Source: Candidatus Falkowbacteria bacterium
GTDB taxonomy: Bacteria; Patescibacteriota; Patescibacteriia; UBA11705; JABHMO01
DNA length: 64,000 nt
NCBI GenBank assembly: GCA_016214755.1
Contig: JACRNX010000031.1
Location: 18,020-82,019 of the forward strand
Reading direction: 5' to 3'
Positions 636 to 24,160 of this stretch are shown in pieces. Every line of letters begins with the position of its first letter. Within the stretch, counting starts at the first letter, position 1. The notes under the pieces were generated by a model. It saw only the letters and a program-made list of their open reading frames with translations, was not told the origin of the DNA and searched no databases. The position numbers were made by a program, and so were the translations under genes.

Positions 636-1118
636 TTACAATTCGTTAATTGTCTTTATGATATTTTTCGCTGACAGACGATCATCGTATTTTTTTCCGA
701 CATAAGAATAAAGTAATTTTTGCCGTTTGTCTATCATGAAAATTGAAGGTTTGGCAACGATTTTATTTTTATATTTGGTCTTTATGTTAAAGTATTTAAT
801 CAGCTCCATTTTTTCGTCCGCGATAACGGGAAAATTTAATTTTAAAAAACTCTTCAACAGGCTAGACTTTAGTTTATCGTCATTTGACACGGCCATAACG
901 CAAAAACTCGCTGTTTGAATTTTTTTTAAATAGCGCTGAACGTCAGCTAATTGTTTTTTGCAATGCTGGCACCAGGCGCCGCGGAAAAAAATCAACAGGA
1001 GATTTTTATTTTTTTGAAAATCTGTCAGCTTGAATTTTTCTCCGTTATTATTTTCAAGAATAAAATTTTTAATTGCTTTCATATCAACAGCATTTATCCC
1101 AGTTAATAATGGTGCCAA
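636..1118 (-). CDS. thioredoxin-fold redoxin, AhpC/TSA family (peroxiredoxin or thiol-disulfide oxidoreductase)
   Basis: FFRGAWCQHC carries the CxxC redox motif typical of AhpC/TSA/redoxin proteins. The true start is probably the internal Met at 1082..1080 (MKAIKNF...), which sits 1 nt after the stop of an upstream small ORF (TGA-N-ATG coupling). Confidence 0.6.
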   Translation of the reverse strand: MAPLLTGINAVDMKAIKNFILENNNGEKFKLTDFQKNKNLLLIFFRGAWCQHCKKQLADVQRYLKKIQTASFCVMAVSNDDKLKSSLLKSFLKLNFPVIADEKMELIKYFNIKTKYKNKIVAKPSIFMIDKRQKLLYSYVGKKYDDRLSAKNIIKTINEL

Positions 1119-1242
1119 GTTTTTCTATCTTCTCTTCGTATAATTTAACGCATTTTTCAGAACAAAAATGCACCTCGTATTTTTCAACTAATTCAATGTT
1201 GGTTATCTTTTGTTCACAGATTATGCATTTTTTTATTTTCAT
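1084..1242 (-). CDS. small Cys-rich TRASH/YHS-like zinc-ribbon protein (52 aa), not in the ORF track
   Basis: Own translation of the minus strand: MKIKKCIICEQKITNIELVEKYEVHFCSEKCVKLYEEKIEKLGTIINWDKCC. It has a C-x2-C ... HFCS-x2-C spacing like TRASH/YHS metal-binding domains. Its stop is 1 nt before the internal ATG of the redoxin gene. Confidence 0.35.
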   Translation of the reverse strand: MKIKKCIICEQKITNIELVEKYEVHFCSEKCVKLYEEKIEKLGTIINWDKCC

Positions 1243-1360
1243 AAGATTCAGGATTAAAGTTATAATACAAGATGTACAGATTTATACTGATTTACGGATG
1301 AGGGCGAGAAGATAAGGGATATACTAATATAAAAATAAAAATTTAAATTCGTTTGTGTTT

Positions 1361-1388
1361 ATTATAGCAGATTTGATGGAATTTTCAA
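1361..1388 (-). promoter_or_regulatory. candidate sigma70-type promoter (minus strand): -35 TTGAAA (1388..1383), 16-nt spacer, -10 TATAAT (1366..1361)
   Basis: Read directly from the reverse complement. Lies just downstream of the terminator hairpin and upstream of the small ORF and redoxin pair. Confidence 0.3.
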
Positions 1389-1395
1389 GCATAAC

Positions 1396-1434
1396 AAAAG
1401 AGTCCCGTTTCCGCGGGACTCTTTTTATCTTTTT
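1396..1434. terminator. bidirectional rho-independent terminator
   Basis: Perfect 12-bp stem aaaagagtcccg / cgggactctttt with a 6-nt loop. T-runs follow on the plus strand and a U-rich tail follows on the minus strand. It lies directly 3' of the stop of the minus-strand gene 1438..2580. Confidence 0.65.
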
Positions 1435-1437
1435 CAA

Positions 1438-2580
1438 CTATTTCTTGACTCCTGAATACGCGATTGCTCTCACGATCGCCCATTGATTCGAAGTACTTGG
1501 GTTCTTGCCATAGGTGGCTTTGAATTTGGATATGCCTGCTTTTTCTTTCGTTAAGTCTCTACTTACCGCTCTCAACTTATAAGCAATATAAGCGACACCA
1601 AGTTCATCTGCCGCGTTCTTCAGATTCGCCGATCTCTTAAAGACCTTAGTGAAGTCTTTAAGCGCGGCTGCTTCAGCTTTCGCGGATTTTTCAGCCGGCT
1701 TCTTACTGGACAAGATAGAATTCAATGTTGTCCAATCTTTTTCTGTCTTTGGCACGCCGCCATAAATTTCTTTATAATCCGCTAACACGCCTTTTCTATC
1801 ATTTACCGACAGCTTTCCAGACGCGCTTGTTCCATAGGCCACAAAATGTACTACTTTCCATCCATCACTGCTTGGCAGTGATTGAGTCAATTTCATGTAA
1901 GTTGTTAGGCCTTCTTTTTCTTTCGATACGTCTTTTACTGCTGGCGCGACTGGCACAACTTGTGCCGGAGCAACCGTAGTCGTAGTTGTCGTCGTCGTGG
2001 TCGTCGTGGTCGTCGTGGTTGCCGTCGGAGTTGTCGCCGGCGACGTTGTTGATGTGCCGCCGCCACTGCCGCCCGTGCCGCCGCCGCTTGATGACGCGAT
2101 TGTGAACGTCGCGTTGCTTGGCGTTGGCGTGTAACCTTCGCCGCCTAATGTTCGAACAGATACTGTCGCTGTCGCCGCCGCTGAGCCAGTAGTATAAGCG
2201 TATGTCCACGTTGTTCCACTACCACTCATATATGTAAAGTCGAGCGCGGTAGTAGACCCTTCAACAACTTTTAATTCTGGTGTTGCCGCTGGCGCTGAAC
2301 CGAATGTGGCAGTAATCGTCATGGCGGTAGATGGCGTAACTGAACAGCTTGACGTACAACTGCTATACATTAGCGCGACCGTCGGGCTTGCTTCTGTCCA
2401 ATAGCCGTATCCGTAGCCATATGCGCCGGTTGAATCATAACCATAACCATAACCATCGTTTTGTGTCGCGTACGCTGTTATGTCTGATAGCAAGACAGTT
2501 GATAATACTAAAATTAGGACAAATAATAGTTTGCTTAATTTTTGATTATCTCGTAAAAACAATTTAATCATTTTTTTCAT
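1438..2580 (-). CDS. secreted or cell-surface repeat protein (signal peptide, GYGYGY repeats, long poly-Thr linker, C-terminal globular domain); function unknown
   Basis: N-terminus is Lys-rich followed by a hydrophobic core and an AYA-TQ signal-peptidase-like site. Then YGYGY repeats and a beta-rich Ser/Thr/Ala domain. A tract of about 15 consecutive Thr is flanked by TSTTSPATTPTA. RBS-like aaagga lies about 10 nt upstream of the ATG. Confidence 0.55.
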   Translation of the reverse strand: MKKMIKLFLRDNQKLSKLLFVLILVLSTVLLSDITAYATQNDGYGYGYDSTGAYGYGYGYWTEASPTVALMYSSCTSSCSVTPSTAMTITATFGSAPAATPELKVVEGSTTALDFTYMSGSGTTWTYAYTTGSAAATATVSVRTLGGEGYTPTPSNATFTIASSSGGGTGGSGGGTSTTSPATTPTATTTTTTTTTTTTTTTVAPAQVVPVAPAVKDVSKEKEGLTTYMKLTQSLPSSDGWKVVHFVAYGTSASGKLSVNDRKGVLADYKEIYGGVPKTEKDWTTLNSILSSKKPAEKSAKAEAAALKDFTKVFKRSANLKNAADELGVAYIAYKLRAVSRDLTKEKAGISKFKATYGKNPSTSNQWAIVRAIAYSGVKK

Positions 2581-2726
2581 CTTAATATTCCTTTCACGAT
2601 ATTTCCCAACTTTATACCAGCCGACCTTTGTTTAACTGGTTATGATTTTATGAACTAATCTATTTTCTTAAGAATTTGGCCCAAACAGATTAATTCATTA
2701 CAGTTGGTTTAATTATTTATGTTTTA

Positions 2727-2735
2727 ATTATAGCA
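2727..2735 (-). promoter_or_regulatory. candidate extended -10 promoter (TGcTATAAT on minus strand) for the surface-protein gene
   Basis: The reverse complement reads tgcTATAAT about 145 nt upstream of the ATG at 2580. The -35 is weak. Purely sequence-based. Confidence 0.25.
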
Positions 2736-2802
2736 CAATTTTTTGTTTCGCGCTCCTGCGTTAACCATTCGCCTGTGGATAAAGTTAAAATTAAATTTTT
2801 AG

Positions 2803-2841
2803 AACTTAAAAATCGTTATATGCAATAACGATTTTTAAGTT
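2803..2841. repeat. 17-bp perfect inverted repeat with 5-nt spacer (aacttaaaaatcgttat-atgca-ataacgatttttaagtt); candidate terminator of the glycan locus or an operator site
   Basis: Seen directly. Located 24 nt 3' of the stop of the last locus gene (2865) and upstream of the promoter-like region for the surface-protein gene. Confidence 0.4.
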
Positions 2842-2864
2842 ATTCGACAAAATTCACTCGTCAA

Positions 2865-3851
2865 TCAGGCGTTTTTCAGTTTATGTTTGTATTTTTGGAA
2901 ATATTCAACGGCAAAAGCAGTTAAAAGTCCAAGAATGACGGCTAAACTAAAAGCGGCGATTACATTTCTTCGGCGGTTCGGCGCGATTTTCGCTTTCGGA
3001 GCGATTGGCGCGATTTCTATTTTTGTCTGATTTGTTTCATATTGCTTTTCAAATTCTTTTTGCTGCAACGCTTGATCATTGAGCGAAAGGGCCAGGTTTA
3101 ATTTTGAAATCTCAAATAAAATGCCTTCTTTTTCGGTTTTTAAGGAGGCGACTAGATTAATGTAGCTCTCCACTATTCGGCCCTGCGCTTCTGATTGGGC
3201 GTTGTCTTTTTCTTGAATTTTTGTTTCGTATTTAATAATATCTTTTTCAATTCGTTTTATCACCTCGTTAAGAGCTTTAATGTCAGCTAATGTTTTTTCC
3301 CTGTCTTCCTTTATTAAAATTATTTCGGTTTCAAAAGTTTTTTTGGCGGTGGAAAACAGCTTATCGTGCCGGTCAAAAAGGATTCCGATTATGGCGTTAG
3401 TGTTCTTAACGGCGATTTCCGGCGTCTTGCCTCGGCCTTTTATCATAAGGAAATCCGCGCCTTTGTCTTTTTCAATAGTAAAAAAATTCTTTGCCGTCGA
3501 GTAATCAGATCCTTCCAGCAGTGAGAGCGCCGACGCGATCTGTTTTAAGTATTCATCGCTGTTAAATATTGAAGTAATTTCATTAAAGGTCTCAATAGGT
3601 TTGTTTTTATAGCGTCCAATATAAATTAACGCCCGAGCTTCATAAGTCGAGGGCAGAAGCAGATTAAAAATTATCGCGGCAACCGTGATGATTAGGACGA
3701 TAGAGCCAATAATTATTTTTCTTTTGAGAATTATTTTAATGTAATCCATCAAAATTATGTTATCACTCTCTACCTTTTCTTGATTTTTGATTATTAGCTT
3801 GTCCGCTTCCGGCGACAGCGCTGGTTGATTTGATTCATTTAGGTTTTCCAT
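2865..3851 (-). CDS. polysaccharide co-polymerase / chain-length determinant (Wzz-like)
   Basis: N-terminal TM helix (IIIGSIVLIITVAAIIF), a long coiled-coil-rich soluble region and a C-terminal TM helix (VIAAFSLAVILGLLTAFAV). This is the classic PCP/Wzz topology. It is the last gene of the glycan locus. Confidence 0.55.
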   Translation of the reverse strand: MENLNESNQPALSPEADKLIIKNQEKVESDNIILMDYIKIILKRKIIIGSIVLIITVAAIIFNLLLPSTYEARALIYIGRYKNKPIETFNEITSIFNSDEYLKQIASALSLLEGSDYSTAKNFFTIEKDKGADFLMIKGRGKTPEIAVKNTNAIIGILFDRHDKLFSTAKKTFETEIILIKEDREKTLADIKALNEVIKRIEKDIIKYETKIQEKDNAQSEAQGRIVESYINLVASLKTEKEGILFEISKLNLALSLNDQALQQKEFEKQYETNQTKIEIAPIAPKAKIAPNRRRNVIAAFSLAVILGLLTAFAVEYFQKYKHKLKNA

Positions 3852-3859
3852 AAGCCGTT

Positions 3860-4591
3860 TTAATTAAATAATTTAATTTTATAATAAATAATTCCAATAT
3901 ATTCATGAATGGCAATGGCTGATATTTCAAGATTTTCTGCCGACGGAATTAAATCTAAGACGTTGAATCCGCTTTTTGTTTTATAATCAGAGACCGCGGC
4001 TATTGGTTGAGTATTGAAAGCTCGAAAGGCCATCATCGCTCGGGGCATGTGATAAGCAGAGGTTAACAAAAAAAACGGGTTTTGTCCAATCGCTGGCGCC
4101 AGGTTCCGCGCGCTCTCAAAAGTATTCCTTGATTGTTCGTCCAGTTGAATATACTCAGGTTCTATGCCCACCATTTTAAGCCAGTCGCAGAACTCCGTCA
4201 ATTCATCGTTTTCAGTATCGAACGGGCTTACTCCTGAAATAATGATTTGCACTGTTTGATTGTTTTTTTTATAAAAATTATATAAGCTTAATAATTTTTC
4301 CGCTCGCAATAAATCATTCTCATAGCCGCCGGTCAGAAAGACAATAGTTATTTTATCCTGACTAATATTTTCCTCGCTGATTGGTGGATAATATTTTTCC
4401 AAGGGTGAGATGATGGCCATGGCTATAGGCGTCGTGCTGAACAGATAATATAAAATGGCAACGATTATCAACAAGATTTTTCCTCGCCCGCGCGTTTTTT
4501 CCTTAAAGTTAAGAATTATCGCAATTATCAGGAAAACAAATATAAAAACAATCGGATTCAAAATTTGTTGGATGAGTTTTATGGCCGTCAT
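3860..4591 (-). CDS. DUF218 (YdcF/ElyC/SanA-like) membrane-anchored protein
   Basis: N-terminal TM helices plus the LTSAYHMPRA motif characteristic of DUF218. Confidence 0.55.
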   Translation of the reverse strand: MTAIKLIQQILNPIVFIFVFLIIAIILNFKEKTRGRGKILLIIVAILYYLFSTTPIAMAIISPLEKYYPPISEENISQDKITIVFLTGGYENDLLRAEKLLSLYNFYKKNNQTVQIIISGVSPFDTENDELTEFCDWLKMVGIEPEYIQLDEQSRNTFESARNLAPAIGQNPFFLLTSAYHMPRAMMAFRAFNTQPIAAVSDYKTKSGFNVLDLIPSAENLEISAIAIHEYIGIIYYKIKLFN

Positions 4592-6459
4592 TTTATCATG
4601 CTTAAGTTTGCGTTTGGTATGATTTCCTGAATCAGCTGGATTATCTTATTTTTTTCATTGGCCTCGGCCGCGTTTTTTAATTCGAAAAGTTGTCTCATGA
4701 ACATGTCATCGCCGACTGATTCAAATTTAGAAATGTAAATGCGGTTGTGTTTTGTCGGGCATTCTTCTTTAGTTAAAATTTCTTCAAATAATTTTTCGCC
4801 CGGCCGAATACCGGTAAAAACAATAGGAATGTCAATGTCTGGCTGGTATCCGGCGAGGCGAATCATCTCTTTCGCCAAATCAACAATTTTTATCGGCTCT
4901 CCCATATCCAAAACGAAAATTTCTCCGCCCTCGCCGAGAGCGCTGGCTTGCATTACCAAAAGGCAGGCCTCTTCGGTTACCATGAAGTATCTTTTCATTT
5001 CAGGATGGGTGATTTCAACAGGACCGCCCTTTTTTATTTGATTTTTAAAAATTCCAACGACATTGCCTTGGCTGTCAAGGACATTGCCGAATCGAACGGC
5101 GCAAAATTTCGTTATCCCCTTTTTATCAAGCGAAGTACAAACCATTTCCGCTACTCTTTTACTCGCGCCCATCATTGAAGTCGGATTAATCGCTTTATCG
5201 GTTGATATAAAAACAAATTTTTCCACATTGCTCTTTATCGCCTCCTCGGCCAAAATTAACGTACCAAAAATATTATTCTTTACCGCCTCATCCGGATGAT
5301 CTTCCATCAAGGGAACGTGCTTGTAAGCGGCCGCGTGAAAAACCACCTGCGGTTTATATTGATTTAAAATTGACGCCACTTTATTTCTGTCACCAATATC
5401 GCCGACGATAAATTTTTTATTGATATCCGGATATTGGGTTTTTAGTTCTGTCCAAAGATAAAAGCTTCCGGTTTCGTTATTATCAAGTGAAATTATAAAG
5501 TTTGGTTTAAATTTTAATAATTGCCGATAAAGATGCGAACCAATGGAGCCGGCGCCACCGGTGATAAGGACGTTCTTTCCTTTAATGAAATTATTTATCA
5601 TTTCAGTGTCAATTTCAACTTTGTCGCGGCCTAACAAATCATCAATTTGTATGTCGCGCAAATTGCTAAGCGTGACTTTATCATTCAGCAACTCGTCCGT
5701 GCCGGGAAGGATTTTTATGCTTTTTATTCCCGCTTCGCGCGCGATTTCAACCGCTCGGCAGATAATTTCTTTCGGCGCGGAAGGAGCGGCGATGATAAAT
5801 TCGTTAATGTTATATTTTTGATTGATTTTCGGCACTAAAGATAAATTTCCGATGACTTTTATCCCATGAATCAAAACCCCGCGTTTCATCGGGTTATCGT
5901 CAATTAGCCCGATTAGCTGATGACTGTTATGGCTTAACATGTAGCGAACAAGCTGCTCGCCGGCTTCGCCGGCGCCGAAAATAAGCGCTTTGTTTTTATC
6001 GCCGTTAAGCGGAACATGCTTCAATCCATGAATGTAAATTCTTTTGGCAAAACGCAAGCCACTAAGCATGATCAACGCCAGCAAACCGCTGATAAAAATA
6101 ATTGACCTTGGAAAACCGATGAACGTTTGATAATCTCGCAAAAGAAAAAGCGCGGCGCCAATTATCAGAAATCCAAGTGTTACCGCCCGCAATAAACGCA
6201 ATAATTCCTTCACGCTGACAAACGACCATGATATGTAATACAACCGCTCTCGCCATAGCAGAAAAATTATTATCGGAGCGGATAATAAAATAAAATATCC
6301 AATCATCGGATAATATTTTGGGATTATCTTGCCGTCAAAACGCAAAATAAAACCAAACAAGCAAGAAGCTGATATTATAAAAAAATCAGCTAACAAGAAA
6401 AACGCGGTTCTCTTCGCGGTTGTTCTTTGAAAAAGCCATTTCAGTGCCTTTTTTAACAT
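4588..6459 (-). CDS. membrane-anchored nucleotide-sugar 4,6-dehydratase, CapD/PglF/WbpM family (Polysacc_synt_2)
   Basis: Four N-terminal TM helices, then a Rossmann domain with LITGGAGSIGSHL and a second NAD-binding-like region. 623 aa, typical of the PglF/WbpM/CapD family. Confidence 0.8.
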   Translation of the reverse strand: MLKKALKWLFQRTTAKRTAFFLLADFFIISASCLFGFILRFDGKIIPKYYPMIGYFILLSAPIIIFLLWRERLYYISWSFVSVKELLRLLRAVTLGFLIIGAALFLLRDYQTFIGFPRSIIFISGLLALIMLSGLRFAKRIYIHGLKHVPLNGDKNKALIFGAGEAGEQLVRYMLSHNSHQLIGLIDDNPMKRGVLIHGIKVIGNLSLVPKINQKYNINEFIIAAPSAPKEIICRAVEIAREAGIKSIKILPGTDELLNDKVTLSNLRDIQIDDLLGRDKVEIDTEMINNFIKGKNVLITGGAGSIGSHLYRQLLKFKPNFIISLDNNETGSFYLWTELKTQYPDINKKFIVGDIGDRNKVASILNQYKPQVVFHAAAYKHVPLMEDHPDEAVKNNIFGTLILAEEAIKSNVEKFVFISTDKAINPTSMMGASKRVAEMVCTSLDKKGITKFCAVRFGNVLDSQGNVVGIFKNQIKKGGPVEITHPEMKRYFMVTEEACLLVMQASALGEGGEIFVLDMGEPIKIVDLAKEMIRLAGYQPDIDIPIVFTGIRPGEKLFEEILTKEECPTKHNRIYISKFESVGDDMFMRQLFELKNAAEANEKNKIIQLIQEIIPNANLSMIK

Positions 6460-6480
6460 AATGAAATGAATCTGTATAAA

Positions 6481-6924
6481 TTAATTGCTTTTTATCTTGA
6501 GTTTATAACTAAAAATATTTCCAATTATCGTTAAAATATTGATAATAGCAATGATTATAATTACTCTAGTAGCGCTTAGCTCTATTTTGAGGAAACGAAG
6601 AATAACCAAAGAAAGGACAACAACGCAAATTGACAGAAAAAGGCTAAATATTTGCCGCTCCATCGAATCAAGAGAGGTTATTTTGAAATCAGATTGGCCA
6701 TCACGAGCGAAAGAACGCGTCTCCGGAAAAAACATGAAACTGACGTTCAGTCCTGGAAAATATAAAGTAAAAAAGCCGCCGATGGCAATCGTTAAGGCGA
6801 CGACAAAATCGTACCAAGCCATAAGAAATATGACCATTGTTATGATAGATAATAAAATTATTATTATTTGACTTTGAAATTTATGCCAATCCAATTTTAT
6901 CATAATGATGGCGTGAATTTCCAA
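6481..6924 (-). CDS. small 4-TM membrane protein (possibly GtrA-like)
   Basis: 147 aa with four predicted hydrophobic helices. Overlaps the upstream gene by 25 nt. The GtrA assignment is only from size, topology and context, next to a GT-C-like protein. Confidence 0.3.
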   Translation of the reverse strand: MEIHAIIMIKLDWHKFQSQIIIILLSIITMVIFLMAWYDFVVALTIAIGGFFTLYFPGLNVSFMFFPETRSFARDGQSDFKITSLDSMERQIFSLFLSICVVVLSLVILRFLKIELSATRVIIIIAIINILTIIGNIFSYKLKIKSN

Positions 6925-8549
6925 ACATGCGGGCTGATATTAATGAATTTTTCGTTTTTTTCAATAAAAATTTGGAAAGGAAACCCTTGTTGCTGTTTTG
7001 CGCCGATAAAAAAATAGGTGGGGCTTGCAAAGGTTGAATTTATCATTTCCATTTTTGCTTCTTCATCACTGCCCCTCCAAAATTCCATCCAGCTATCATA
7101 TCCCCAAGGGTCTGGTCCCCAGCCAGGTCCATAGCTTTTCCGTCCGCCGAAGCCGTAAATCCAGGGAGTATAAAAGCTATTTGTCGCGATAATGAACGCG
7201 TCGGATTCCGCCGTCATTGATAAACTTTTTATTTCCTGAAGTTCTTCCGGCGGAATTTGCGGTTGTTTTTTCCAGGCCATAGCGCCAACGTTATAAAAAG
7301 CGCACGCAAGAAAAAGGAACATAATAATTTTTATAATTTTATCATTGGCGAAGCGGCTTATCAACAAATATAAAACAGGCGTGGCGAATATAATAATGAA
7401 TAAATCTAAAATAATCATGAAACGCTGTTGATAGATAACGGGGAAAATTACTAAGGGAAGCAAAATAAAAAACGAAACGTAAAGGAAAATAATGAACGAA
7501 CGCGAAACGTTGTCAGTGTTAAACGCCAATTTCCACAAAGACGGTTTAAGAAGTCCATAGACCGTGAAAGGCAATAGAACGATACTGGTAACGCTTAACG
7601 TTGAAACAGATAGAAACGCGCCCTTAAAGCGCACGATTTCCCAAAATGGAAACGTATTATATAATCCTTTGTGTTCAATAATATATTCATTGAAATATTG
7701 CCACAAAAGTGCGCCCTTAAAAACGATAATAATGATTGACAGGCAGGCGCCGATTATAAAAAGTTTAATCAGATAGCTATTGATTTCTTTTTTACGCGCG
7801 AAACAGTAGACGATATTTATCAACGAAAAAACGAAAAAGGACAACGCGAATAAGCCGAAAGTCGGCAAATGAAAAAGAAATCCGGCCGCGCCGGTAAAAA
7901 TAGCCAAAAGCGGATGGCGAAAGAGCAAAGCGATAGTGATTAACAGGAAAGCCGTGGCGATCATTTGTTGCCCTAACATCCACCAATAAGCGTAAAATTG
8001 CAGAGCGGAAATTGAAAACAGAAAAATCGCGATTGCCGCCAGCGCCGAGCTGTCTTTGGTTTTTGTCGAACGAAACAATATGTAAAGTCCGCCAGCGATA
8101 AGCAGTTGCGAAATCACATAAATGAAAGAAATAGCGTGTAGCGGCGAAAGTCCGAATATGTGCAATGGCACTAGATTTAAATAATAAGCGGATGAGGAGA
8201 GGAACGAGGAGTCGTTCACGTAAAAATTACGGAGATAAAATCCCGTGTCATAACCGAGCGGCGCTTCTCCAAACTGATAGAATGGAATTAATCGCGTAAT
8301 CAAAATGAAAATAAATGAGAATAACATCAAATATCCCCAGAGCGCCGTCTGTTTGTTTTCCGTTCGATTTTTATTGTCCGTCCGCCGGAGCAAAAAGTTA
8401 ATCGTAAAGAAAAGCAACAGAAAATACGCGAAGAACAATAGTTGCCTATTCCAAGCGAGTTCGCTCGGCCGTAAAAGCACGCCGATAAACACGTATATTA
8501 TAAACTGCCATTGTTGTCGGATCGCGGTTAGCCATTGGCGCAAACGCAT
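6900..8549 (-). CDS. large polytopic membrane protein with C-terminal soluble domain (GT-C-like glycosyltransferase candidate)
   Basis: About 12 hydrophobic helices followed by a 110-aa Trp/Gly-rich soluble tail. The architecture resembles ArnT/PMT-type GT-C enzymes. No motif could be confirmed by eye. Confidence 0.35.
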   Translation of the reverse strand: MRLRQWLTAIRQQWQFIIYVFIGVLLRPSELAWNRQLLFFAYFLLLFFTINFLLRRTDNKNRTENKQTALWGYLMLFSFIFILITRLIPFYQFGEAPLGYDTGFYLRNFYVNDSSFLSSSAYYLNLVPLHIFGLSPLHAISFIYVISQLLIAGGLYILFRSTKTKDSSALAAIAIFLFSISALQFYAYWWMLGQQMIATAFLLITIALLFRHPLLAIFTGAAGFLFHLPTFGLFALSFFVFSLINIVYCFARKKEINSYLIKLFIIGACLSIIIIVFKGALLWQYFNEYIIEHKGLYNTFPFWEIVRFKGAFLSVSTLSVTSIVLLPFTVYGLLKPSLWKLAFNTDNVSRSFIIFLYVSFFILLPLVIFPVIYQQRFMIILDLFIIIFATPVLYLLISRFANDKIIKIIMFLFLACAFYNVGAMAWKKQPQIPPEELQEIKSLSMTAESDAFIIATNSFYTPWIYGFGGRKSYGPGWGPDPWGYDSWMEFWRGSDEEAKMEMINSTFASPTYFFIGAKQQQGFPFQIFIEKNEKFINISPHVWKFTPSL

Positions 8550-8562
8550 ATAGTAGAATTTT

Positions 8563-9567
8563 TTAATTTTTCGTCGGCGGATAAACTTGAACCTTCGTGA
8601 TTTTATAAATTAAATACGCAATAAAAAATATTAATAAGAAAACGCCGCCCCAGAAAAAAATCATGTTTTGGCGAAAAAGTGAGACCGCCGTCGCTCCGCC
8701 GAGAATACTTAATAAATCTAATAACAGCACTGGTTTTTTTTCCGATTTTGTGATGACGGCCAGACGATGTGACGTGTGATCTCTTCCGCCCACGCTAATT
8801 TTTTGGTGATTTAATTTCCGCATTACTACAACGAAAGTCATGTCCAACAGCGGGATAAGAAATATAAGTAACGCGACGAATAACATTTTAAGCGGTGTTT
8901 CATTTGTCTGATTAATTGCGCTGATGGCGGCGGTTGCCAAATAAAATCCGATGAAAAGACTGCCAGCGTCGCCCATAAAAATTTTTGCCGGATTAGAATT
9001 GTAAAATAAAAAACCAATCATGGTGGAGAGGAAAATGGCATTGATTATAAAGGGATTTATTTGATTAAAATGAAAGTTTATGATTAGCAGAAATAAACTT
9101 GTGAGCGCGGCGATGCCGGCTGATAGTCCGTCCATGTTATCAATGAGATTAAACGCGTTCGTGATTCCGACAATCCATAAAATCATTATTATCGCGACAA
9201 GCAGAGATATCGGCGCCGAAAAATTAACGCTTAAAATAACAATTATCGCCGCGATTAATATTTGACCGATAAGCTTCGCCCGAGCGCTTATTTTAAATAA
9301 ATCATCAACCAGGCCTAACAAAAAAATTAATGCCAAGCAAAATAATAACGCCTTATTTTGTCCCGTCTGAAGCGCGAAAATGAAGCTTGGAACGATGAAG
9401 GCGATAAAAATTCCAAGCCCGCCCAACAGCGCGGTTTCTTTTTGATGCCATCGGTCAATTCGCGGTTTCGCCGTGAACCCGCTCTTGACCGTCATTTTTA
9501 TGATAACCGGCGTTAAAATCATTATTAACGCGAATGCCAGCGCTGAATAATAAATAGCATTCAACAT
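8563..9567 (-). CDS. UDP-HexNAc:undecaprenyl-phosphate HexNAc-1-phosphate transferase (WecA/TagO/WbpL family, GT4 MraY-like)
   Basis: VDDLFKISARAKLIGQ and NAFNLIDNMDGLSAG motifs with about 10 TM helices. These are the hallmark polyprenyl-phosphate N-acetylhexosamine-1-P transferase motifs. Confidence 0.8.
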   Translation of the reverse strand: MLNAIYYSALAFALIMILTPVIIKMTVKSGFTAKPRIDRWHQKETALLGGLGIFIAFIVPSFIFALQTGQNKALLFCLALIFLLGLVDDLFKISARAKLIGQILIAAIIVILSVNFSAPISLLVAIIMILWIVGITNAFNLIDNMDGLSAGIAALTSLFLLIINFHFNQINPFIINAIFLSTMIGFLFYNSNPAKIFMGDAGSLFIGFYLATAAISAINQTNETPLKMLFVALLIFLIPLLDMTFVVVMRKLNHQKISVGGRDHTSHRLAVITKSEKKPVLLLDLLSILGGATAVSLFRQNMIFFWGGVFLLIFFIAYLIYKITKVQVYPPTKN

Positions 9568-9580
9568 AATAGCTGATGCT

Positions 9581-10540
9581 TTAAGTTATCTGGGATTCTA
9601 TCAACTTATTTATTATATCATTGATTTTCATTGTTGGGGCATAACCAATCGCCGACGCGATTTTCTCGATTGATGGCAGTCGTCGCGCCATATCCTCATA
9701 TCCTTCCGCGTAAGCGTTTTGATATGGAATAAACACGATTTTAGAACTGCAGCCGGTCGCCTTGATCACGCGTTCAGCCAATTCTTTAATGCTAATTTCT
9801 TCTTGACTGCCGATATTATAAACATTGCCGACAGCCATTGGACAATTTATTAATTCAATTAACGCGTTCACGACGTCTTTAACGTAAGTGAAACAGCGCG
9901 TCTGCGTTCCGTCGCCGTAAATCGTAATGTCTTCGTTATTTAAAGCTTGCTTGATAAATCTGGGCAGAACCATGCCGTAGGCGCCGGTTTGGCGCGGACC
10001 GACGGTATTGAATAATCTGACTATTATTGTCGGAATTTTTTTTTCTTTCCAATACAAATACGCCATCACCTCGTCAACGGCCTTGGCGGTCGAATAACTC
10101 CAACGAATTTTTTGCGGGCAGCCCAGAACTCGGTCGCCATCTTCTTTTAATGGAAAATCTTGGCACTTTCCGTAAATTTCCGAGGTGGAAGTCAATAACA
10201 CTTTTTTGCCGAATTGGTTCGCGCTGTTTAACACGTTTTCAGTGCCGTGAATGTTTGTCTTTAACGATTCAAGCGGTTTCTCCATTATTAAATTAACGCC
10301 GACCGCCGCCGCCAGATGAAAAATAAAATCAGCGTCAGCCACGGCTTCATTTACCAATCTTTCATCAAGCACCGAACCTTGAATGAATTGAAAATCTTTG
10401 TTGTCCCGATGATGGGCGATATTTCGCAATGAACCAGTTGATAAATCGTCCAGCGCGACGATTTGGTTTCCTCTTAAAAGCAATTCATCCGCCAAATGAG
10501 AGCCGATAAAACCAGCTCCGCCGGTAATTAAAAATTTCAT
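9581..10540 (-). CDS. NAD-dependent nucleotide-sugar epimerase/dehydratase (UXS/ArnA-C-terminal-like SDR)
   Basis: MKFLITGGAGFIGSHL glycine motif; LLTSTSEIYG and YSTAKAVDE catalytic region resembling UDP-glucuronate decarboxylase family members. Confidence 0.7.
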   Translation of the reverse strand: MKFLITGGAGFIGSHLADELLLRGNQIVALDDLSTGSLRNIAHHRDNKDFQFIQGSVLDERLVNEAVADADFIFHLAAAVGVNLIMEKPLESLKTNIHGTENVLNSANQFGKKVLLTSTSEIYGKCQDFPLKEDGDRVLGCPQKIRWSYSTAKAVDEVMAYLYWKEKKIPTIIVRLFNTVGPRQTGAYGMVLPRFIKQALNNEDITIYGDGTQTRCFTYVKDVVNALIELINCPMAVGNVYNIGSQEEISIKELAERVIKATGCSSKIVFIPYQNAYAEGYEDMARRLPSIEKIASAIGYAPTMKINDIINKLIESQIT

Positions 10541-11682
10541 AATTTATAAAATAATGTTTTTTGATTAAATAGCGATTGATAGAGCGACAGCGTTTGTTCG
10601 TTTATCCGGCGCAGATCAAAGTTTTCGCGGATATGTTTGACGCCGCATTCGCCCATTTTTCTTCGCCGCTCTTTGTCAAACAATTTTATGGTCGCTTCAA
10701 CGAATTGAACGACGCTGTTTGGCGGGAACAGGAAACCAGAACAATTATCGGAAACGACTTCGTCTAATGGCGCGATTTTGCTGGAAATAACCGGAATACC
10801 GCAGGCTTGCGCTTCGGCGAAAACCACGCCAAAACCCTCTCGCCATGTCGGTAAAAAGAAAATATCAAACGCTTGCAAATATGGCAATACGTCGTTTATG
10901 TATCCAAGCAGATGAATTTTTTCATTCAGTCCGCGCGCGGTTATCATTTTTTCAAATTTTTCCCGCTGTTCGCCTTCGCCAAGAATCAAAAATTCCACGT
11001 TAAAATTAGTTTTAAGCGCGTCCGCGCATTCAATTATTGTTTCAATCCCCTTGTCGTTGACCAGTCTTGAAATCGCGCCGACGATGATTTTCTCAATCGG
11101 AATGTTGAGACGCCGGCGAAATTCCACTTTCTGCTCGTCGCCGCATGGCTTGAAGCGTTCAAGATCAATTCCCATGTAAATTTGATGAACCTTGCTTTCA
11201 GGCGCGACCTTGAACGATTGACCGTAACGTTTAACTTCCTTACTGTCAACGATTATCGCGTCGCATAGTTTCCCCGCCAGTTTTTCTAAATATAAATAGT
11301 ACTTTTTTTTCCAAAACGATAAAAATGGATGAAACGGCCAGGCGTGGGCGGTATGGATTATAATAGGCACCTTTTCCGTCCAGGCCGCTATGCGGCCGAT
11401 AAATCCAGCTTTCGCGGTTTGAGTGTGGACCAAATCAAAATTTCCATCCTGAATTATTTTTTTTATTTTGAAAAGAGAAATGATGTCTTTGATCGGATTG
11501 ATTCCGCGCGCGATTTCGATTTCATGGCATTTAAAACCTTGTTGCCGCACGAATTCAGCCTGGCTGCCAATCCCCGCGATTGCTTCAACATAAAATCCCC
11601 GATTCCTTATGAATCGCATGAAATCCAAACTAAATTCTTTTATGCTTGACGGAATAGTCGCGATGAAAAGCACTTTTTTCAT
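10537..11682 (-). CDS. glycosyltransferase family 4 (GT-B)
   Basis: C-terminal EGFGVVFAEAQACGIPVISS (E-x7-E) motif, 381 aa. 4-nt overlap with neighbours. Confidence 0.8.
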   Translation of the reverse strand: MKKVLFIATIPSSIKEFSLDFMRFIRNRGFYVEAIAGIGSQAEFVRQQGFKCHEIEIARGINPIKDIISLFKIKKIIQDGNFDLVHTQTAKAGFIGRIAAWTEKVPIIIHTAHAWPFHPFLSFWKKKYYLYLEKLAGKLCDAIIVDSKEVKRYGQSFKVAPESKVHQIYMGIDLERFKPCGDEQKVEFRRRLNIPIEKIIVGAISRLVNDKGIETIIECADALKTNFNVEFLILGEGEQREKFEKMITARGLNEKIHLLGYINDVLPYLQAFDIFFLPTWREGFGVVFAEAQACGIPVISSKIAPLDEVVSDNCSGFLFPPNSVVQFVEATIKLFDKERRRKMGECGVKHIRENFDLRRINEQTLSLYQSLFNQKTLFYKL

Positions 11683-12671
11683 ATAATTCCTGCGGACTTC
11701 ATGTAATTTATTGTTTCCGCGATACCGCGTTCGTGGCCAATTTTTTCAATTCCGCTTAATTGAAATTCCGCGTTTTTGGTACCGTAAACGCTTGGACATG
11801 TTAAAATTTTGTACGCGACATATGTTATTGGCGACGGCAATTTCAAATAACGAAATCCGCTGCCAACAATGGAAAGCGGCCAGGCGATTGCTTTCGGTAT
11901 AGTGTGAATCTTATTGCTTAATCCAAGCTGTTTTTGCACTAAAACGCAAAACTCACGCCATTCAATGGGCTCATTGATCGAGAATATTTTGTTGTTTTCC
12001 GAATTTTCAGTTTGGGCAAGGGCAAGAAGAGCGCGAATTACGTCGTGAATGTATATTATATTATAGAATGATTTTTGCTCGCCGACAAAACAAAAGTAGC
12101 CACGTTTAATCGCCTTGACGATTCTGAAAAAATTATTATTTTCTTTGGCGCCAGGGCCGTAAATAATGCTCGGTCTAATTATAACAGCCGGAAATCCCAG
12201 TGAAATTTGGTTTCTAATAAAAATCTCGGCCTCGTATTTTGTCTTTTCGTATTGATTTCGAGGGAGGCAAATTGCTTCTTCGCTAATAACTTTTTCTTTG
12301 TGCCTATTTCCAAAAACGCAAATGCTTGAAAGGAAGATGAATTTTTTTATTTTTGCGGAGTCCTTTAGACGCTCAACGATCTTTTTAGTGCCTATTACAT
12401 TAATTTGCGTCATTAGTTTTTTATTGAAATTTTCCACGGCCAAATGAAAGACATAATCGCTGTTTTGCCCAAAATTATTTAAACTAAAAAGGTCGCCATG
12501 GACAATGGTTGTTCTCGTTTGCCAATTAGAAGGCAACGAAGACATTGATTGGCGGGTAAGAATTTCAACGTTGGTGCCGGCGTCAATAAGAAGTTCCGTC
12601 AAGTGTTTACCGACGAAACCAGTCGCTCCGGTAATGGACACGGTTTTATTTTTAAATATTTGATTTAACAT
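11679..12671 (-). CDS. NAD-dependent epimerase/dehydratase family protein (SDR)
   Basis: VSITGATGFVGKHL Rossmann motif and a YxxxK region (YEKTKYEAE). Confidence 0.65.
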   Translation of the reverse strand: MLNQIFKNKTVSITGATGFVGKHLTELLIDAGTNVEILTRQSMSSLPSNWQTRTTIVHGDLFSLNNFGQNSDYVFHLAVENFNKKLMTQINVIGTKKIVERLKDSAKIKKFIFLSSICVFGNRHKEKVISEEAICLPRNQYEKTKYEAEIFIRNQISLGFPAVIIRPSIIYGPGAKENNNFFRIVKAIKRGYFCFVGEQKSFYNIIYIHDVIRALLALAQTENSENNKIFSINEPIEWREFCVLVQKQLGLSNKIHTIPKAIAWPLSIVGSGFRYLKLPSPITYVAYKILTCPSVYGTKNAEFQLSGIEKIGHERGIAETINYMKSAGII

Positions 12672-13955
12672 TTAAATGATTGAAATGTTTATTGTTTTTT
12701 TCTTTGTTAAAAAAGCGGCGTACGCCAAAAGAACAAAAAATATGAACGACGATTCAAGTTGTGGCGCGCTTGAAGTGCTGATAATATAAGACAAAAAACT
12801 TAATAATAAATAATATGGCAACATCTCTGTTTTGTGTTTTTCGTGGAATCGCCATAGCGACACGAGAAGAGAATAGATTAAACCTAAAAACGCTAGAAAA
12901 CCGAATACGCCGCTTTCAATGTAAAAAGCTATTGCCAACGGCAAATCTGAACGGAGTTCGAATTTTGATATTTGGGACATATGTTTCACCACGGCGCCCG
13001 TTCCGTATCCAAGAATTGGTTTTTTCGCGATGTCTTCCAATGTAATTTTCAACCCATCAACGCGTTTGAAAAATGTGCTTTGTTCGCGCTGGATTTTCGT
13101 TACGCTTTCTGAAAATGTGTATTGCCAAAATCCCGCCGGCACGGCCCGGTTGATTATTATGATGGAAACCAAAATTATTGTGGATGACAGTAAAATGTTT
13201 TTAATTTGCTGGCGGGAGAGTTTTTGCAGAAACAATGATATAACGAAAGAAACAGAAACCGCGATAATCGCCGCTCTGACTTGTGTGGTCAGTAACGCAA
13301 GCGCGACCATGATTGTCTCCATCAATTTATAAACTTTCGCTGATTTTTTTTTCTCGCGCAAAAAATCGTAAAGCACTAGAAAAAAAATAATCGAGAAAAA
13401 GAATCCAAATGATTGAGACCCTCCATACGGTCCCTTGCTGACCATAAGCCCTTCTATACGCCATAATTCAAAGTTCAAATTTAAACTCGGATTCGCCAGC
13501 CAAGCGAACCTGAACTGGTCGTAAATTCCGCGCTGTAAAATAAATTCTATTATGGCGACGATGGCCATGCCAACGCCGAGAAAAGTAATCGTCTTAAAGA
13601 TTTTTCGCCATTCTTCGTCTGTTTTAATTTGGTCGCTTAAAATGAAGAAGATTACATAATAATACAGTAAATATCCAATCCAAACAACGGTTGATTGAAT
13701 TAATTTATCCGCCGCGAAAATTGAAATGAATTGAGCGATGATTAATAACAGTAAAAAATTAGTGATGTTGCCTTTATATAAATGAAAGCATTCTCCATGC
13801 ACTGCTTTTTTTATAAGCCAGCTGAATATAAGGAGAATCATTAAAATTCGAGGCAAATCCAACGTGGGCACGCCGTGTCCGAAATAAAAACCTGTTCCTT
13901 GCGGCAAGAAAGGTATGGCAAATATGCAAAAATATAAAAAATATTTAAAAGACAT
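12672..13955 (-). CDS. O-antigen polymerase/ligase-family membrane protein (Wzy or WaaL/O-oligosaccharyltransferase-like)
   Basis: 427 aa, 10-12 TM helices with a larger extracytoplasmic loop in the C-terminal half. Assigned from topology and locus context together with Wzx, Wzz and WecA. Confidence 0.4.
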   Translation of the reverse strand: MSFKYFLYFCIFAIPFLPQGTGFYFGHGVPTLDLPRILMILLIFSWLIKKAVHGECFHLYKGNITNFLLLLIIAQFISIFAADKLIQSTVVWIGYLLYYYVIFFILSDQIKTDEEWRKIFKTITFLGVGMAIVAIIEFILQRGIYDQFRFAWLANPSLNLNFELWRIEGLMVSKGPYGGSQSFGFFFSIIFFLVLYDFLREKKKSAKVYKLMETIMVALALLTTQVRAAIIAVSVSFVISLFLQKLSRQQIKNILLSSTIILVSIIIINRAVPAGFWQYTFSESVTKIQREQSTFFKRVDGLKITLEDIAKKPILGYGTGAVVKHMSQISKFELRSDLPLAIAFYIESGVFGFLAFLGLIYSLLVSLWRFHEKHKTEMLPYYLLLSFLSYIISTSSAPQLESSFIFFVLLAYAAFLTKKKTINISII

Positions 13956-13956
13956 A

Positions 13957-15933
13957 TTATTGTTTCATCAATTTTTCCCAACGCGTCATCGCTTCGTCTA
14001 AATGCCAATACTGCTTGACGAAATACTGAATTTTCTCTCGGTTATTTTGTGACGATTTTAATACCAATTCATTAATTTTCTCTCTTAATTCATCAACGCT
14101 ATATGTTTTCGCATAAAATTCTTCGTGTCCTTTCAGCGGCGACATAAACATCCAAGCGCTTAATACTGGAATCACGACATAACAGCCGAGCGCCAGCGCT
14201 TCCAGCGCCACGGCTGAATCGCCGACTATAAGGATTTTCGCGTTTTGAAGCAATTCATTTATTGGCCTTTGTCTAATGCAAAAATTATTTTCAATGGACT
14301 CGATTTCTAATTTTTTAAAGACGCCATCGAGCGGAAGCGTTGGATGTCCTTTAAACCATATTTTAAATGAATTCGTACCATAAAACGCGCTTTTGACGAG
14401 CGAAATTATTTCTTCTGTCTCCGCGCGGCTGGCTGAAGTCGCGACAACGATTAAGTTATCTTTTGGAGGAAGAATTTGTCTCAACTTTTCATTAAGATAT
14501 AAAAACCGCGTCGCTTCGATTTCTTCCACGCGCGGATAATACGATTGCCTCAATAACGAAGCAGTAATTCCGCCATTGGCCGCGACAACATCATCGACAG
14601 GATAATCATATTTATTTTTTGAAATTTCAACTTGATCGCGGAAATAGAAAAAATAATTCGACGAAACGGAAGTGTGGACATAGCCGATTGTCTCCATCGT
14701 TGGCACGAACATCCGCTTGGCCGCGTTAAGAGCGATTTCCCACGTGTGCATTTCCGCGAAATGCAAGCATTTGCCAGAAAGGGGTAGTCGTTTAAAAGCG
14801 TTGCAAAATAATTCAAGATAGATCAAACTTTCCAATCCCTGCCAACCAACGAAAGAACGGTCGTTCATTTTTTTTATTATCACCGAATAGTCGTTTTGAC
14901 CGAATAACCGCGTGATTTCAGCGTTTAATTTTGTTTTAACCCTTAAATATCTATGTGCCAGCGATGCCCATTGTCGGCAAACGCGCAAAACGCCGGCAAT
15001 AGTTAAAAATTGTTCGAGCAAATAACCATTTTCACCTTTGCTTCGCAGTTGTTTCGCCAGATGAACCGCGTCGCCGTAAGTTCGATTATCAACATAAACG
15101 AACAGCCACAACCAAATAATTTTTTCTTTTATGCTTTTTATCAAGGGTTCGAGTTTCCCCAAAAATTTATTTTCTAATTGTCCATTCTTGACTTTAGCTG
15201 GATCCGCGCACGGAAAATAACTGCAGATTAATAACCCATTATCCTGACTGCCAGCGAATATGGGAATTCGGCCGAGAGCGATTCTTACCTGGATTGCCCG
15301 AATCATCCGGCAGACAAACGTTAAAAAAGCTCTGGCAAAAATTATCGGCAGTCGGTTAGATTGATGCAAGTATCGTTTGATAAGTTTCGATCTTGAAATG
15401 TTTTTCCGCTGTTTACTTTTTAACGCTATGTATTTAATTTTCCGTTGTTGACAAATCGCGCTGATCGCTTGTTTTAATTCCCTATCTTCAACAACGATAC
15501 AGCAATGACTAATATCATAAATGTCAATCGCGCTGGCGATTGCTTCCAGCTGGGCGATCTTAAATAATCCCGAGTTTTTTATCGTATTCTTTTCCGCCAA
15601 TTGCGAGAACCACCAGGCGGAAACATCTCTCCGCGCGATATAAAAATATTGTTTAACATTAACGCCATTGACTATAATTTCACCAGCCGCGCCGATTAAC
15701 TTGGCTATCCTTTCGCGCAGTTTATCAACTTCTCGGTCAATGCTGGCCGCTGTCGGCAGGACTTCCGGATTTATATTGTTTTTTTTAAATAACGCGGATT
15801 TAACAGAGTTAATTATGTCCGGATTCGAAGTCAACGGGAAAAGGAGGCCTTTGCTCTTTGGACAATCCGCTGATTTAATTTTCAATATTGACGACGCGTC
15901 AATCGCATTGTCAAAAATAAATAAATTTTTCAT
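13957..15933 (-). CDS. large soluble protein, possible GT-B-fold glycosyltransferase-like or surface-carbohydrate biosynthesis protein
   Basis: 658 aa. The C-terminal KILIVGDSAVALEALALGCYVVIP resembles the GT-B C-terminal EX7E-like region. No firm family assignment from sequence alone. Confidence 0.3.
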   Translation of the reverse strand: MKNLFIFDNAIDASSILKIKSADCPKSKGLLFPLTSNPDIINSVKSALFKKNNINPEVLPTAASIDREVDKLRERIAKLIGAAGEIIVNGVNVKQYFYIARRDVSAWWFSQLAEKNTIKNSGLFKIAQLEAIASAIDIYDISHCCIVVEDRELKQAISAICQQRKIKYIALKSKQRKNISRSKLIKRYLHQSNRLPIIFARAFLTFVCRMIRAIQVRIALGRIPIFAGSQDNGLLICSYFPCADPAKVKNGQLENKFLGKLEPLIKSIKEKIIWLWLFVYVDNRTYGDAVHLAKQLRSKGENGYLLEQFLTIAGVLRVCRQWASLAHRYLRVKTKLNAEITRLFGQNDYSVIIKKMNDRSFVGWQGLESLIYLELFCNAFKRLPLSGKCLHFAEMHTWEIALNAAKRMFVPTMETIGYVHTSVSSNYFFYFRDQVEISKNKYDYPVDDVVAANGGITASLLRQSYYPRVEEIEATRFLYLNEKLRQILPPKDNLIVVATSASRAETEEIISLVKSAFYGTNSFKIWFKGHPTLPLDGVFKKLEIESIENNFCIRQRPINELLQNAKILIVGDSAVALEALALGCYVVIPVLSAWMFMSPLKGHEEFYAKTYSVDELREKINELVLKSSQNNREKIQYFVKQYWHLDEAMTRWEKLMKQ

Positions 15934-16895: not shown

Positions 16896-16896
16896 G

Positions 16897-17337: not shown

Positions 17338-17369
17338 AAAAAAGTATTTAATTAAAAATCATTGAAAAA

Positions 17370-24109: not shown

Positions 24110-24160
24110 ATTAATGATTTTAAAATATTTTCCGAAGGATATAGTCCTGCCCAATTGTTT

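Follow-up and report, generated by a model that had tools for sequence, protein, structure and literature searches.

In Geobacillus and Paenibacillus, O-glycosylation of surface-layer (S-layer) proteins is carried out by a transferase with a Wzy_C domain, and in Geobacillus the S-layer genes are monocistronic, lie near the slg clusters and encode proteins that carry O-linked glycans on Ser, Thr or Tyr (PMC2943079). The slg systems, here SgsE/WsaB of Geobacillus stearothermophilus and SpaA/WsfB of Paenibacillus alvei, are the closest known systems to the locus described in this study, which fills a 64,000-nucleotide (nt) stretch of DNA from Candidatus Falkowbacteria bacterium (contig JACRNX010000031.1, positions 18,020 to 82,019; hereafter the window). 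Our subject is the gene at 1438..2580 on the minus strand, encoding a predicted surface protein of 380 amino acids (aa) with a conserved Gly-Tyr (GY) motif, referred to as the GY-type protein. As in the slg systems, we find a predicted secreted, acidic and hydroxy-amino-acid-rich surface protein, a monocistronic gene near an O-antigen-like polysaccharide cluster and, as a possible transferase, a Wzy_C-like protein, the acceptors in the slg systems being Ser, Thr and Tyr (PMC2943079). Unlike there, the protein has no SLH domain, its anchor candidate is unrelated and all-helical, its predicted mature form has only ~35 kDa, the Wzy_C match is below threshold, and relatives of the locus use PMT_2-type or unclassified multi-transmembrane (multi-TM) proteins. 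For the present locus, lattice formation and glycosylation are both putative.

A second comparison is offered by secreted actinobacterial proteins, in which Thr/Pro-rich linkers are O-mannosylated in a PMT/GT-C-dependent manner. The GY-type protein resembles these in having a disordered Thr/Pro/Ala-rich spacer within a predicted Sec-exported protein, and a PMT_2 gene is adjacent in five relatives, with a remote relative of PMT_2 encoded in the window. It differs in that the loci with a canonical PMT_2 gene alongside are the very ones with the shortest Thr run, and the PMT_2 family (PF13231) also takes in lipid- and glycan-modifying enzymes.

Members of the Candidate Phyla Radiation (CPR)/Patescibacteria are mostly uncultured and their epibiont life depends on the cell surface; how their surface proteins are displayed and decorated is almost unstudied. 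The literature searched, the coverage of which was incomplete, held nothing relevant on a described CPR surface domain, on CPR O-glycosylation or on a CPR leader RNA. Through its association with hypervariable glycan loci, the GY-type protein may be the first surface glycoprotein of the CPR, an idea that can be tested; if unglycosylated, it would be no more than a common surface protein that has a linker and an uncharacterised domain. Our favoured explanation, which we put forward tentatively, is that the GY-type protein is Sec-exported, docked by its C-terminal domain and coupled to the adjacent glycan locus, likeliest as its O-glycosylation acceptor. The original prediction had pointed to the protein as such an acceptor, with a poly-Thr tract prone to length variation. 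Its observation is confirmed and its interpretation is supported in part; an undescribed C-terminal domain, which defines a family, and a leader RNA that is supported by covariation add to the interest of the locus beyond the first description.

The coding sequence starts with ATG and ends with a stop codon at 1438..1440. Homology searches returned relatives from Patescibacteria only, the full-length orthologues being 38-59 % identical; the best of these reached 59 %, and no 100 % copy was present among the database matches. The gene does occur on a Logan contig (L091), and for the neighbouring protein 6900..8549 the database has a 100 % identical copy from a Candidatus Falkowbacteria metagenome-assembled genome. 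The homologues fall into two groups, full-length orthologues and proteins that share the C-terminal ~150 aa on other extracellular modules. Pfam and NCBIfam scans of the 380-aa protein gave no family match, and an AlphaFold2 model of the whole protein was obtained from an 84-sequence alignment with a mean predicted local distance difference test score (pLDDT) of 85. According to hydropathy and the orthologue alignment, the first 38 aa (2467..2580, minus strand) are a predicted signal peptide, consisting of a Lys-rich n-region, a hydrophobic core (aa 18-31) and the end AYA|TQ. As AxA|TQ(N/D) is kept across orthologues, the cleavable signal peptide of the original prediction is well supported by inference, as a Sec signal. 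Export by Sec to the cell surface with a cut at AYA|TQ would leave a mature protein of ~35 kDa.

Near the start of the mature protein lies the GY motif (aa 43-60; 2401..2454), delineated from the orthologue alignment and AlphaFold2 and composed of GYGYGY (aa 43-48) and, five residues on, YGYGYGY (aa 54-60), then W-T-E. Both blocks had been described as tandem YGYGY motifs, and they are present; however, the pattern xGYGYG-x3-5-YGYGYW(T/S)E is fixed in length and position across orthologues, as expected of a conserved motif and unlike a repeat that can expand. The GY motif is followed by a Ser/Thr/Ala-rich Ig-like beta-sandwich (aa 63-165; 2086..2394), modelled at aa 68-161 with a pLDDT of about 90. 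Its Foldseek matches are of Ig type and weak, and in some relatives the domain is swapped for fn3 or missing. Next comes a spacer (aa 166-216; 1933..2085), Gly-rich and then Thr/Pro/Ala-rich, which by composition and model is disordered, with pLDDT <50 at aa 168-196; a Ser/Thr-rich disordered region of the acceptor type is thus present. The remainder (aa 217-380; 1441..1932) is a Lys-rich, basic all-alpha domain that ends ..WAIVRAIAYSGVKK. We envisage that the acidic N-terminal half, with the GY motif and the Ig-like domain, would be exposed, and that the disordered Gly/Thr spacer would keep it away from the cell.

Two further features were noticed in the Ig-like domain. Its last strand carries an N-x-T sequon within TPSN[A/S/N/G]T (aa 156-158; 2107..2115, minus strand), which by eye recurs in ~9 of the 11 orthologues of full length; the window yielded no enzyme of the STT3/PglB type. 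A CxxxC pair (CTSSC, aa 75-79; 2344..2358, minus strand) is kept in most orthologues and may form an extracellular disulfide. A gene for a thioredoxin-fold AhpC/TSA protein (636..1118) lies just downstream of the GY gene.

The entire 64-kb window is one glycan-biosynthesis locus on the minus strand, with genes for a WecA-like GT4, GT1 and GT2 glycosyltransferases, a Wzx-like flippase, a Wzy_C-like protein, Wzz and many sugar-nucleotide enzymes, as well as B12/radical-SAM enzymes, methyltransferases and ATP-grasp enzymes. To see how general this setting is, we turn to the genomic context of every retrievable GY-type gene, which gave 13 complete loci, the window among them. In all 13, the gene either closes a glycan locus at its 3' end or is divergent from one, the content of these loci varies strongly, and glycan or multi-TM membrane-protein genes lie immediately upstream; the adjacency to a glycan locus noted in the original prediction is therefore a recurrent feature. 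As for the S-layer genes of the slg type, the GY gene of the window, judged by its flanking signals, is transcribed alone and close to a glycan cluster, and the adjacency recurs in the 13 loci. The upstream genes are of three types: Wzz/(DUF218)/PglF-like genes in the window, L001, L011 and L090; genes for unannotated 10-TM and 6-7-TM proteins in L003, L006, L013 and L043; and a divergent canonical PMT_2 gene in L005, L007, L008, L022 and L061. Every locus encodes a multi-TM protein, which is a canonical PMT_2, the remote PMT_2 relative (in the window) or the unclassified 10-TM type. We propose that the GY-type subfamily would serve the hypervariable glycan locus next to it as a dedicated protein partner and, most likely, as its O-glycosylation acceptor.

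The pairs of 10-TM (490-560 aa) and 6-7-TM (140-246 aa) proteins are located at 7408..9784 in L003, 7571..9788 in L006, 6407..8728 in L013 and 6054..8205 in L043. They had no Pfam match, and hhalign comparisons of the 10-TM family with PMT_2 and with the family of the window's 6900..8549 protein were not significant.

If the GY-type protein is glycosylated by its locus, transfer would fall to one of two multi-TM enzymes, encoded at 6900..8549 and 12672..13955, both on the minus strand. The former is an 11-TM membrane protein that hhalign identifies as a remote PMT_2-type GT-C relative and thus as a candidate transferase; it is followed by a gene for a small DUF1616 membrane protein (6481..6924, minus strand). 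When its family was compared to the PMT_2 neighbours of GY genes, hhalign gave 92.8 % (E 3.9e-7, 340 columns) and superposed the invariant GEAPLGYDTGFY loop of the 6900..8549 family on the invariant WIDEGFT loop of the PMT_2 neighbours. PF13231 matches were obtained for 3 of 26 members of the family. The pair formed with DUF1616 occupies the same position in L090 and recurs in L089, and in the L001 genome it lies 29 kb off within the same mega-locus. Comparison of the window's membrane proteins by single-sequence hhalign was not significant, hidden Markov models (HMMs) of the PMT_2 and 10-TM neighbours did not match the six-frame translated window, and PDB sequence searches with 12672..13955, 6900..8549 and 26149..28044 returned no match. 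The second candidate, 12672..13955, is a Wzy_C-like membrane protein of 427 aa, in which the original prediction had suggested looking for an O-oligosaccharyltransferase signature. A Wzy_C match was indeed obtained, but its 27.4 bits stay below the gathering cut-off of 31.7, and neither TPR nor an NCBIfam match was found in this protein. Since Wzx and Wzz are encoded in the same locus, 12672..13955 is most simply read as a polymerase and remains a less likely candidate for an O-oligosaccharyltransferase.

Several points weigh against a docked and glycosylated GY-type protein. Whereas the domain architecture, the distribution of the family, the synteny and the RNA covariation are observed, glycosylation and envelope binding of the protein, like the role of its leader, are properties that we infer. 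Profiles of canonical PMT, PMT_2, STT3 and PglL (including PF02366 and PF13231) did not match anything in the window. One homologue of 6900..8549 bears the name 'EpsG family' (polymerase-like) at NCBI, which renders the function of 6900..8549 ambiguous; proteins of this type may act on polysaccharide, by polymerisation or glycan modification, and not on protein. The upstream membrane proteins differ between loci, the 10-TM type lacking significant similarity with the other two, and the pair of short strands that AlphaFold2 proposes for the GY region has low confidence (pLDDT 50-63). A truncated copy of the gene in L014 adjoins an unrelated cNMP-binding gene. Finally, a block consisting of a small Cys-rich open reading frame (ORF), AhpC and QueA lies downstream in most GY loci, and inherited synteny therefore contributes to the adjacency.

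Carried further, the last point leads to a different explanation, according to which an ordinary adhesin or surface protein, anchored in the envelope, owes its position at the edge of the glycan island to inherited gene order and is neither glycosylated by the locus nor coupled to it. This would agree with the fuller downstream block AhpC-QueA-HD-GT1-GT2-Wzy_C, which recurs in most loci, with a flank that is constant while the glycan content turns over, as at O-antigen loci, with a GY gene that has its own promoter and terminators, and with a window in which no canonical protein O-glycosyltransferase was detected. It is at odds with L022, where the AhpC/QueA flank is lost and the downstream genes are wholly different, but the divergent PMT_2 pairing is kept, and with L043, where the slot beside the glycan locus is kept despite the loss of the Ig-like domain; both cases indicate more than synteny. 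In addition, glycan neighbours are confined to the GY-type members of the C-terminal-domain family. In the GTDB set, a glycan-type gene occupies position -1 or -2 in 6/6 GY loci vs 3/55 non-GY loci (Fisher p = 1.5e-6, for a limited reference set of loci that are phylogenetically non-independent). It is, hence, the N-terminal GY module that tracks glycan loci; neither the C-terminal nor the Ig-like domain does so, and the poly-Thr run does not either. We accordingly regard mere inheritance of gene order as somewhat unlikely, and keep coupling of the protein to its glycan locus as the favoured explanation.

In the window, the Cys-rich ORF of the downstream block (1084..1242, minus strand) encodes 52 aa with the pattern CxxC...CxxxC and lies between the GY gene and AhpC. 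Genes for 50-52 aa are found in the equivalent slot in L003, L007 and L008.

Docking of the protein to the cell would be the task of its C-terminal domain. According to AlphaFold2 and repeat HMMs, it is laid out as a lead-in helix and 3.3 tandem helix-hairpin repeats of ~45 aa; HMMs built from a single repeat detect the other repeats with E down to 1e-11. Eight helices span aa 218-375 in the full-length model, and predicted alone, the domain reaches a pLDDT of 96 and a predicted template modelling score (pTM) of 0.89. A profile search of 1.84 billion representative proteins yielded 1,434 clusters (at 50 % identity), of which 1,006 have E <= 1e-30. In this search, the listed matches nearly always finish at the last residue of the protein, and when 79 loci from species representatives of GTDB were inspected, 75 of the 78 host ORFs stopped exactly at ..IAYSGA(K/T)R, the near-invariant end of the family being ..RAIAYSGA(K/T)R. 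All homologues of the domain are restricted to Patescibacteria. The host proteins range from 153 to 3,477 aa, mostly have an N-terminal hydrophobic signal and often occur in several copies per genome; fusion partners comprise fn3, Bact_surface_Ig-like, CHB_HEX_C, HYR, Big_13, CARDB, TIG and dockerin/cohesin. Throughout, the C-terminal domain is basic (isoelectric point 9.8 in the window, family median 9.5), whereas the remainder of the proteins is acidic (median 4.5).

No SLH or other known wall-anchoring domain was detected in the 380-aa protein. When 120 members of the family were scanned with Pfam at E <= 1, only scattered chance matches appeared, and a PDB sequence search with the domain profile gave only chance matches to BiP (E > 0.1). 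Two possible relationships were rejected as insignificant: DUF4214, with Foldseek E values of only 0.7-3 and absent from the Pfam scan of the 120 members, and the pseudomurein-binding repeat (PMBR), with 3/120 members at E >= 0.008. Like the SLH, CWB2, GW, Cpl-7/CW_7 and PG_binding_1 modules, the domain is terminal, has about three tandem repeats of 45-55 aa, is basic, is joined by low-complexity linkers to varied extracellular domains and occurs in many paralogues per genome. Unlike them, it always takes the extreme C-terminus and shares neither sequence nor fold with these anchors. On this analogy, the simplest reading is that the domain serves as an envelope-docking module of CPR surface proteins, similar in role to SLH, CWB2 and GW and different in fold. 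The basic domain with its 3.3 helical repeats would dock the protein non-covalently in the cell envelope, and the same module is common to more than 1,000 adhesin-like proteins of Patescibacteria. With at least 1,434 protein clusters, it is a candidate for a universal display or anchor domain of the CPR, by which the surface proteomes of these bacteria could be delimited in silico.

The basic character of the domain may also be read in another way, namely that the protein binds or organises the polysaccharide of the locus without being covalently glycosylated, either by stacking of the Tyr and Trp residues of the GY region or by the basic C-terminal domain on an anionic wall glycan, in the way that SLH domains bind pyruvylated secondary cell-wall polymer. 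Aromatic-rich segments commonly bind carbohydrate, and the C-terminal domain has three tandem helical repeats, as does SLH. Anionic glycans are implied by genes for sulfotransferases and a pyruvyl transferase in related loci. Yet the C-terminal domain is also found on hundreds of proteins away from glycan loci, and the high conservation of the GY motif and the C-terminal domain contrasts with radical differences in content between the glycan loci. We consider such a binding role distinctly unlikely and retain the protein as a candidate acceptor rather than a binder of the glycan.

Two observations concern the wider family. The best-scoring representative, P0163 (681 aa), is a DEAD-box helicase fused to the C-terminal domain, which is probably a gene-call or assembly chimera. 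Furthermore, a gene for an HU-type DNA-binding protein (PF00216, 93 aa) lies convergently, 1-3 genes downstream, at 14 non-GY genes with the C-terminal domain (e.g. L020 2136..2417), probably reflecting conserved synteny of one subfamily.

Within the spacer, the protein has a run of 15 uninterrupted Thr codons (aa 188-202), a mixture of ACC, ACG, ACA and ACT. The number of about 15 in the original prediction was correct, but the run is located at 1975..2019 (minus strand) and not at 1985..2035. The original prediction further took Thr/Ser and Tyr clusters as acceptor sites, the tract among them, and suggested that the length of the tract could vary by slipped-strand mispairing; for the tract, neither idea was borne out. 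With respect to the first, the longest Thr run varies between 2 and 15 across relatives, the window having the longest (15 vs 2-10), and it is only 2 in 5/5 loci with an adjacent canonical PMT_2 gene; a link between poly-Thr and PMT_2 was therefore rejected. We conclude that the tract is an evolutionarily plastic spacer, as judged from the alignments, and not the conserved feature of the family, and the conserved, Tyr-rich GY motif would accordingly be the better candidate for the acceptor than the non-conserved Thr run.

With respect to the second, one may suppose that frequent slipped-strand mispairing makes the tract a length-variable simple repeat of the contingency type, which would vary the surface. 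That three perfect 9-bp units are present suggests at least one past duplication, and the run of the window is the longest among its relatives. However, the only perfect DNA repeat in the tract is 3.2 copies of the 9-mer GTCGTCGTG (1991..2019), and with its mixed Thr codons the tract is no long perfect tandem array as found at contingency loci. Any change in its length would be in-frame and limited to the disordered spacer. Within four clusters of relatives at least 90 % identical, no change in run length was found, although substitutions are present elsewhere; the runs were constant at 10 T (5 sequences), 8 T (2), 5 T (2) and 6 T (3). An independent Logan assembly of run SRR12113407 is likewise 100 % identical to 1258..17880 of the window, GY gene included. 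As the run length is constant among near-identical relatives, instability is unsupported and was rejected; we hold frequent slippage to be highly improbable, and the tract probably underwent a single expansion in this lineage, by a 9-bp duplication.

The GY gene closes the glycan locus as a separate transcription unit, flanked by a palindrome, an extended -10 element and a terminator. The glycan operon itself ends with the gene for a Wzz-like chain-length determinant (2865..3851, minus strand; PF02706, 29.7 bits, above cut-off), which has an equal position in L001, L011 and L090. Between the Wzz stop codon and the GY promoter lies a perfect 17-nt palindrome (2803..2841), which is probably the AT-rich terminator of the glycan operon. 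The location of the GY gene right after Wzz and a palindrome was hence described correctly from the start. A promoter of its own had also been proposed; here, a sigma-70 scan of the upstream spacer came back blank on the minus strand, but an extended -10 element, TGCTATAAT, is present at 2735..2727 (minus strand), 147 nt upstream of the ATG. The corresponding TGnTA(T/A)AAT precedes the gene in 11 of 13 related loci, the window counted among them, mostly ~100-185 nt from the start codon. Directly after the stop codon follows a strong bidirectional intrinsic terminator (1396..1425). Transcribed alone from the extended -10 promoter, the gene would be expressed independently and probably under tight control.

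The transcript would begin with a structured 5' leader of ~135 nt (2582..2714, minus strand), for which covariation, a covariance model and folding indicate three stems, P0, P1 and P3. The outer closing stem P0 pairs 2707..2702 with 2611..2606. The P1 core pairs 2693..2685 with 2663..2655 and its loop holds an invariant CUUAAG (2672..2667), and P3, in the minimum free energy (MFE) fold of the window, pairs 2640..2634 with 2622..2616, with an invariant GGUCG (2626..2622) in or at the edge of the loop. A ribosome-binding site (RBS), GAAAGGA, is located at 2595..2589 on the minus strand. This 5' untranslated region (UTR) is conserved in 15 distinct loci, the encoded proteins of which are only ~40-60 % identical, and CTTAAG and GGTCG are invariant in 15/15. 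P1 is a 9-bp stem with compensatory changes (RNAalifold) and P3 a 7-bp stem recognised by inspection and single-sequence folding, while P0 is seen in the MFE fold of the window (z = -3.5). RNAalifold alone yields P1 only; P3 and P0 come from manual and alignment-free analysis.

When 1.43 Mb of related loci were searched with a covariance model of P1 and P3, exactly 15 sites were found, on the sense strand only, with E values from 1e-9 to 1e-23; the next-best match had E 0.35. On the model-fitted alignment, 89.4 % of cells are paired vs 79.9 +/- 1.2 % in shuffled alignments (0/500), two-sided changes occur in 11/16 pairs vs 3.6 +/- 1.4 in the shuffles (0/500), and controls with slid partners are 31-44 % paired; these counts lean towards structure, since the alignment was fitted to it. 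P0 was assessed free of any alignment. Cognate flanks form helices of 5-12 bp at mostly consistent offsets and with differing sequences, such as CCAGCAC/GUGCUGG, CAACAUU/GAUGUUG, CCAACU/AGUUGG and UCAGUAC/GUACUGA, and in 20,000 permutations none reached the cognate mean. G.U pairs and strand specificity argue for an RNA rather than a DNA operator. Neither 2581..2735 of the window nor 3760..3990 of L097 had an Rfam match at E <= 1, and the leader is absent from L022, L043, L061 and all non-GY genes.

The leader may act as a regulator that responds to a metabolite or protein, or may stabilise the mRNA, and probably controls mRNA stability or translation; no terminator or RBS-sequestering expression platform was obvious in it. 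In the mechanism proposed here, the three-stem leader would thus set stability or translation of the GY mRNA. S-layer genes have long stabilising 5' UTRs. With riboswitches, protein-binding leaders and S-layer 5' UTRs it has in common the long 5' UTR with three covarying stems, invariant nucleotides that occur only in loops and a strict tie to one gene family; it differs in having no Rfam family and no obvious expression platform. Very few cis-regulatory RNAs are known from this phylum, and the leader, compact and supported by covariation, offers itself as a tractable candidate regulator.

A broader reading would combine these elements into a four-part surface-coat module of the Falkowbacteria/Kuenenbacteria type, made up of a variable glycan locus, a GY acceptor that is possibly Tyr-O-glycosylated, a phylum-specific anchor for which solved structures offer no detectable fold relative, and a riboswitch-like leader. 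In this combination, the leader would fold as a three-way junction and set synthesis of the GY protein by sensing a metabolite or protein tied to envelope or glycan supply. We regard the module, taken as a whole, as fairly unlikely; if true, it would make the C-terminal domain a general surface-display anchor of CPR bacteria.

The glycan locus itself, at more than 60 kb, is unusually elaborate (21686..24154, 48382..53087 and 38968..45066). Its gene set includes three B12-binding radical-SAM fusions, two SPASM radical-SAM proteins and three ATP-grasp ligases, together with a transketolase similar to 1-deoxy-D-xylulose-5-phosphate (DXP) synthase and a heptose-type set of SIS, GHMP-kinase and NTP-transferase genes.

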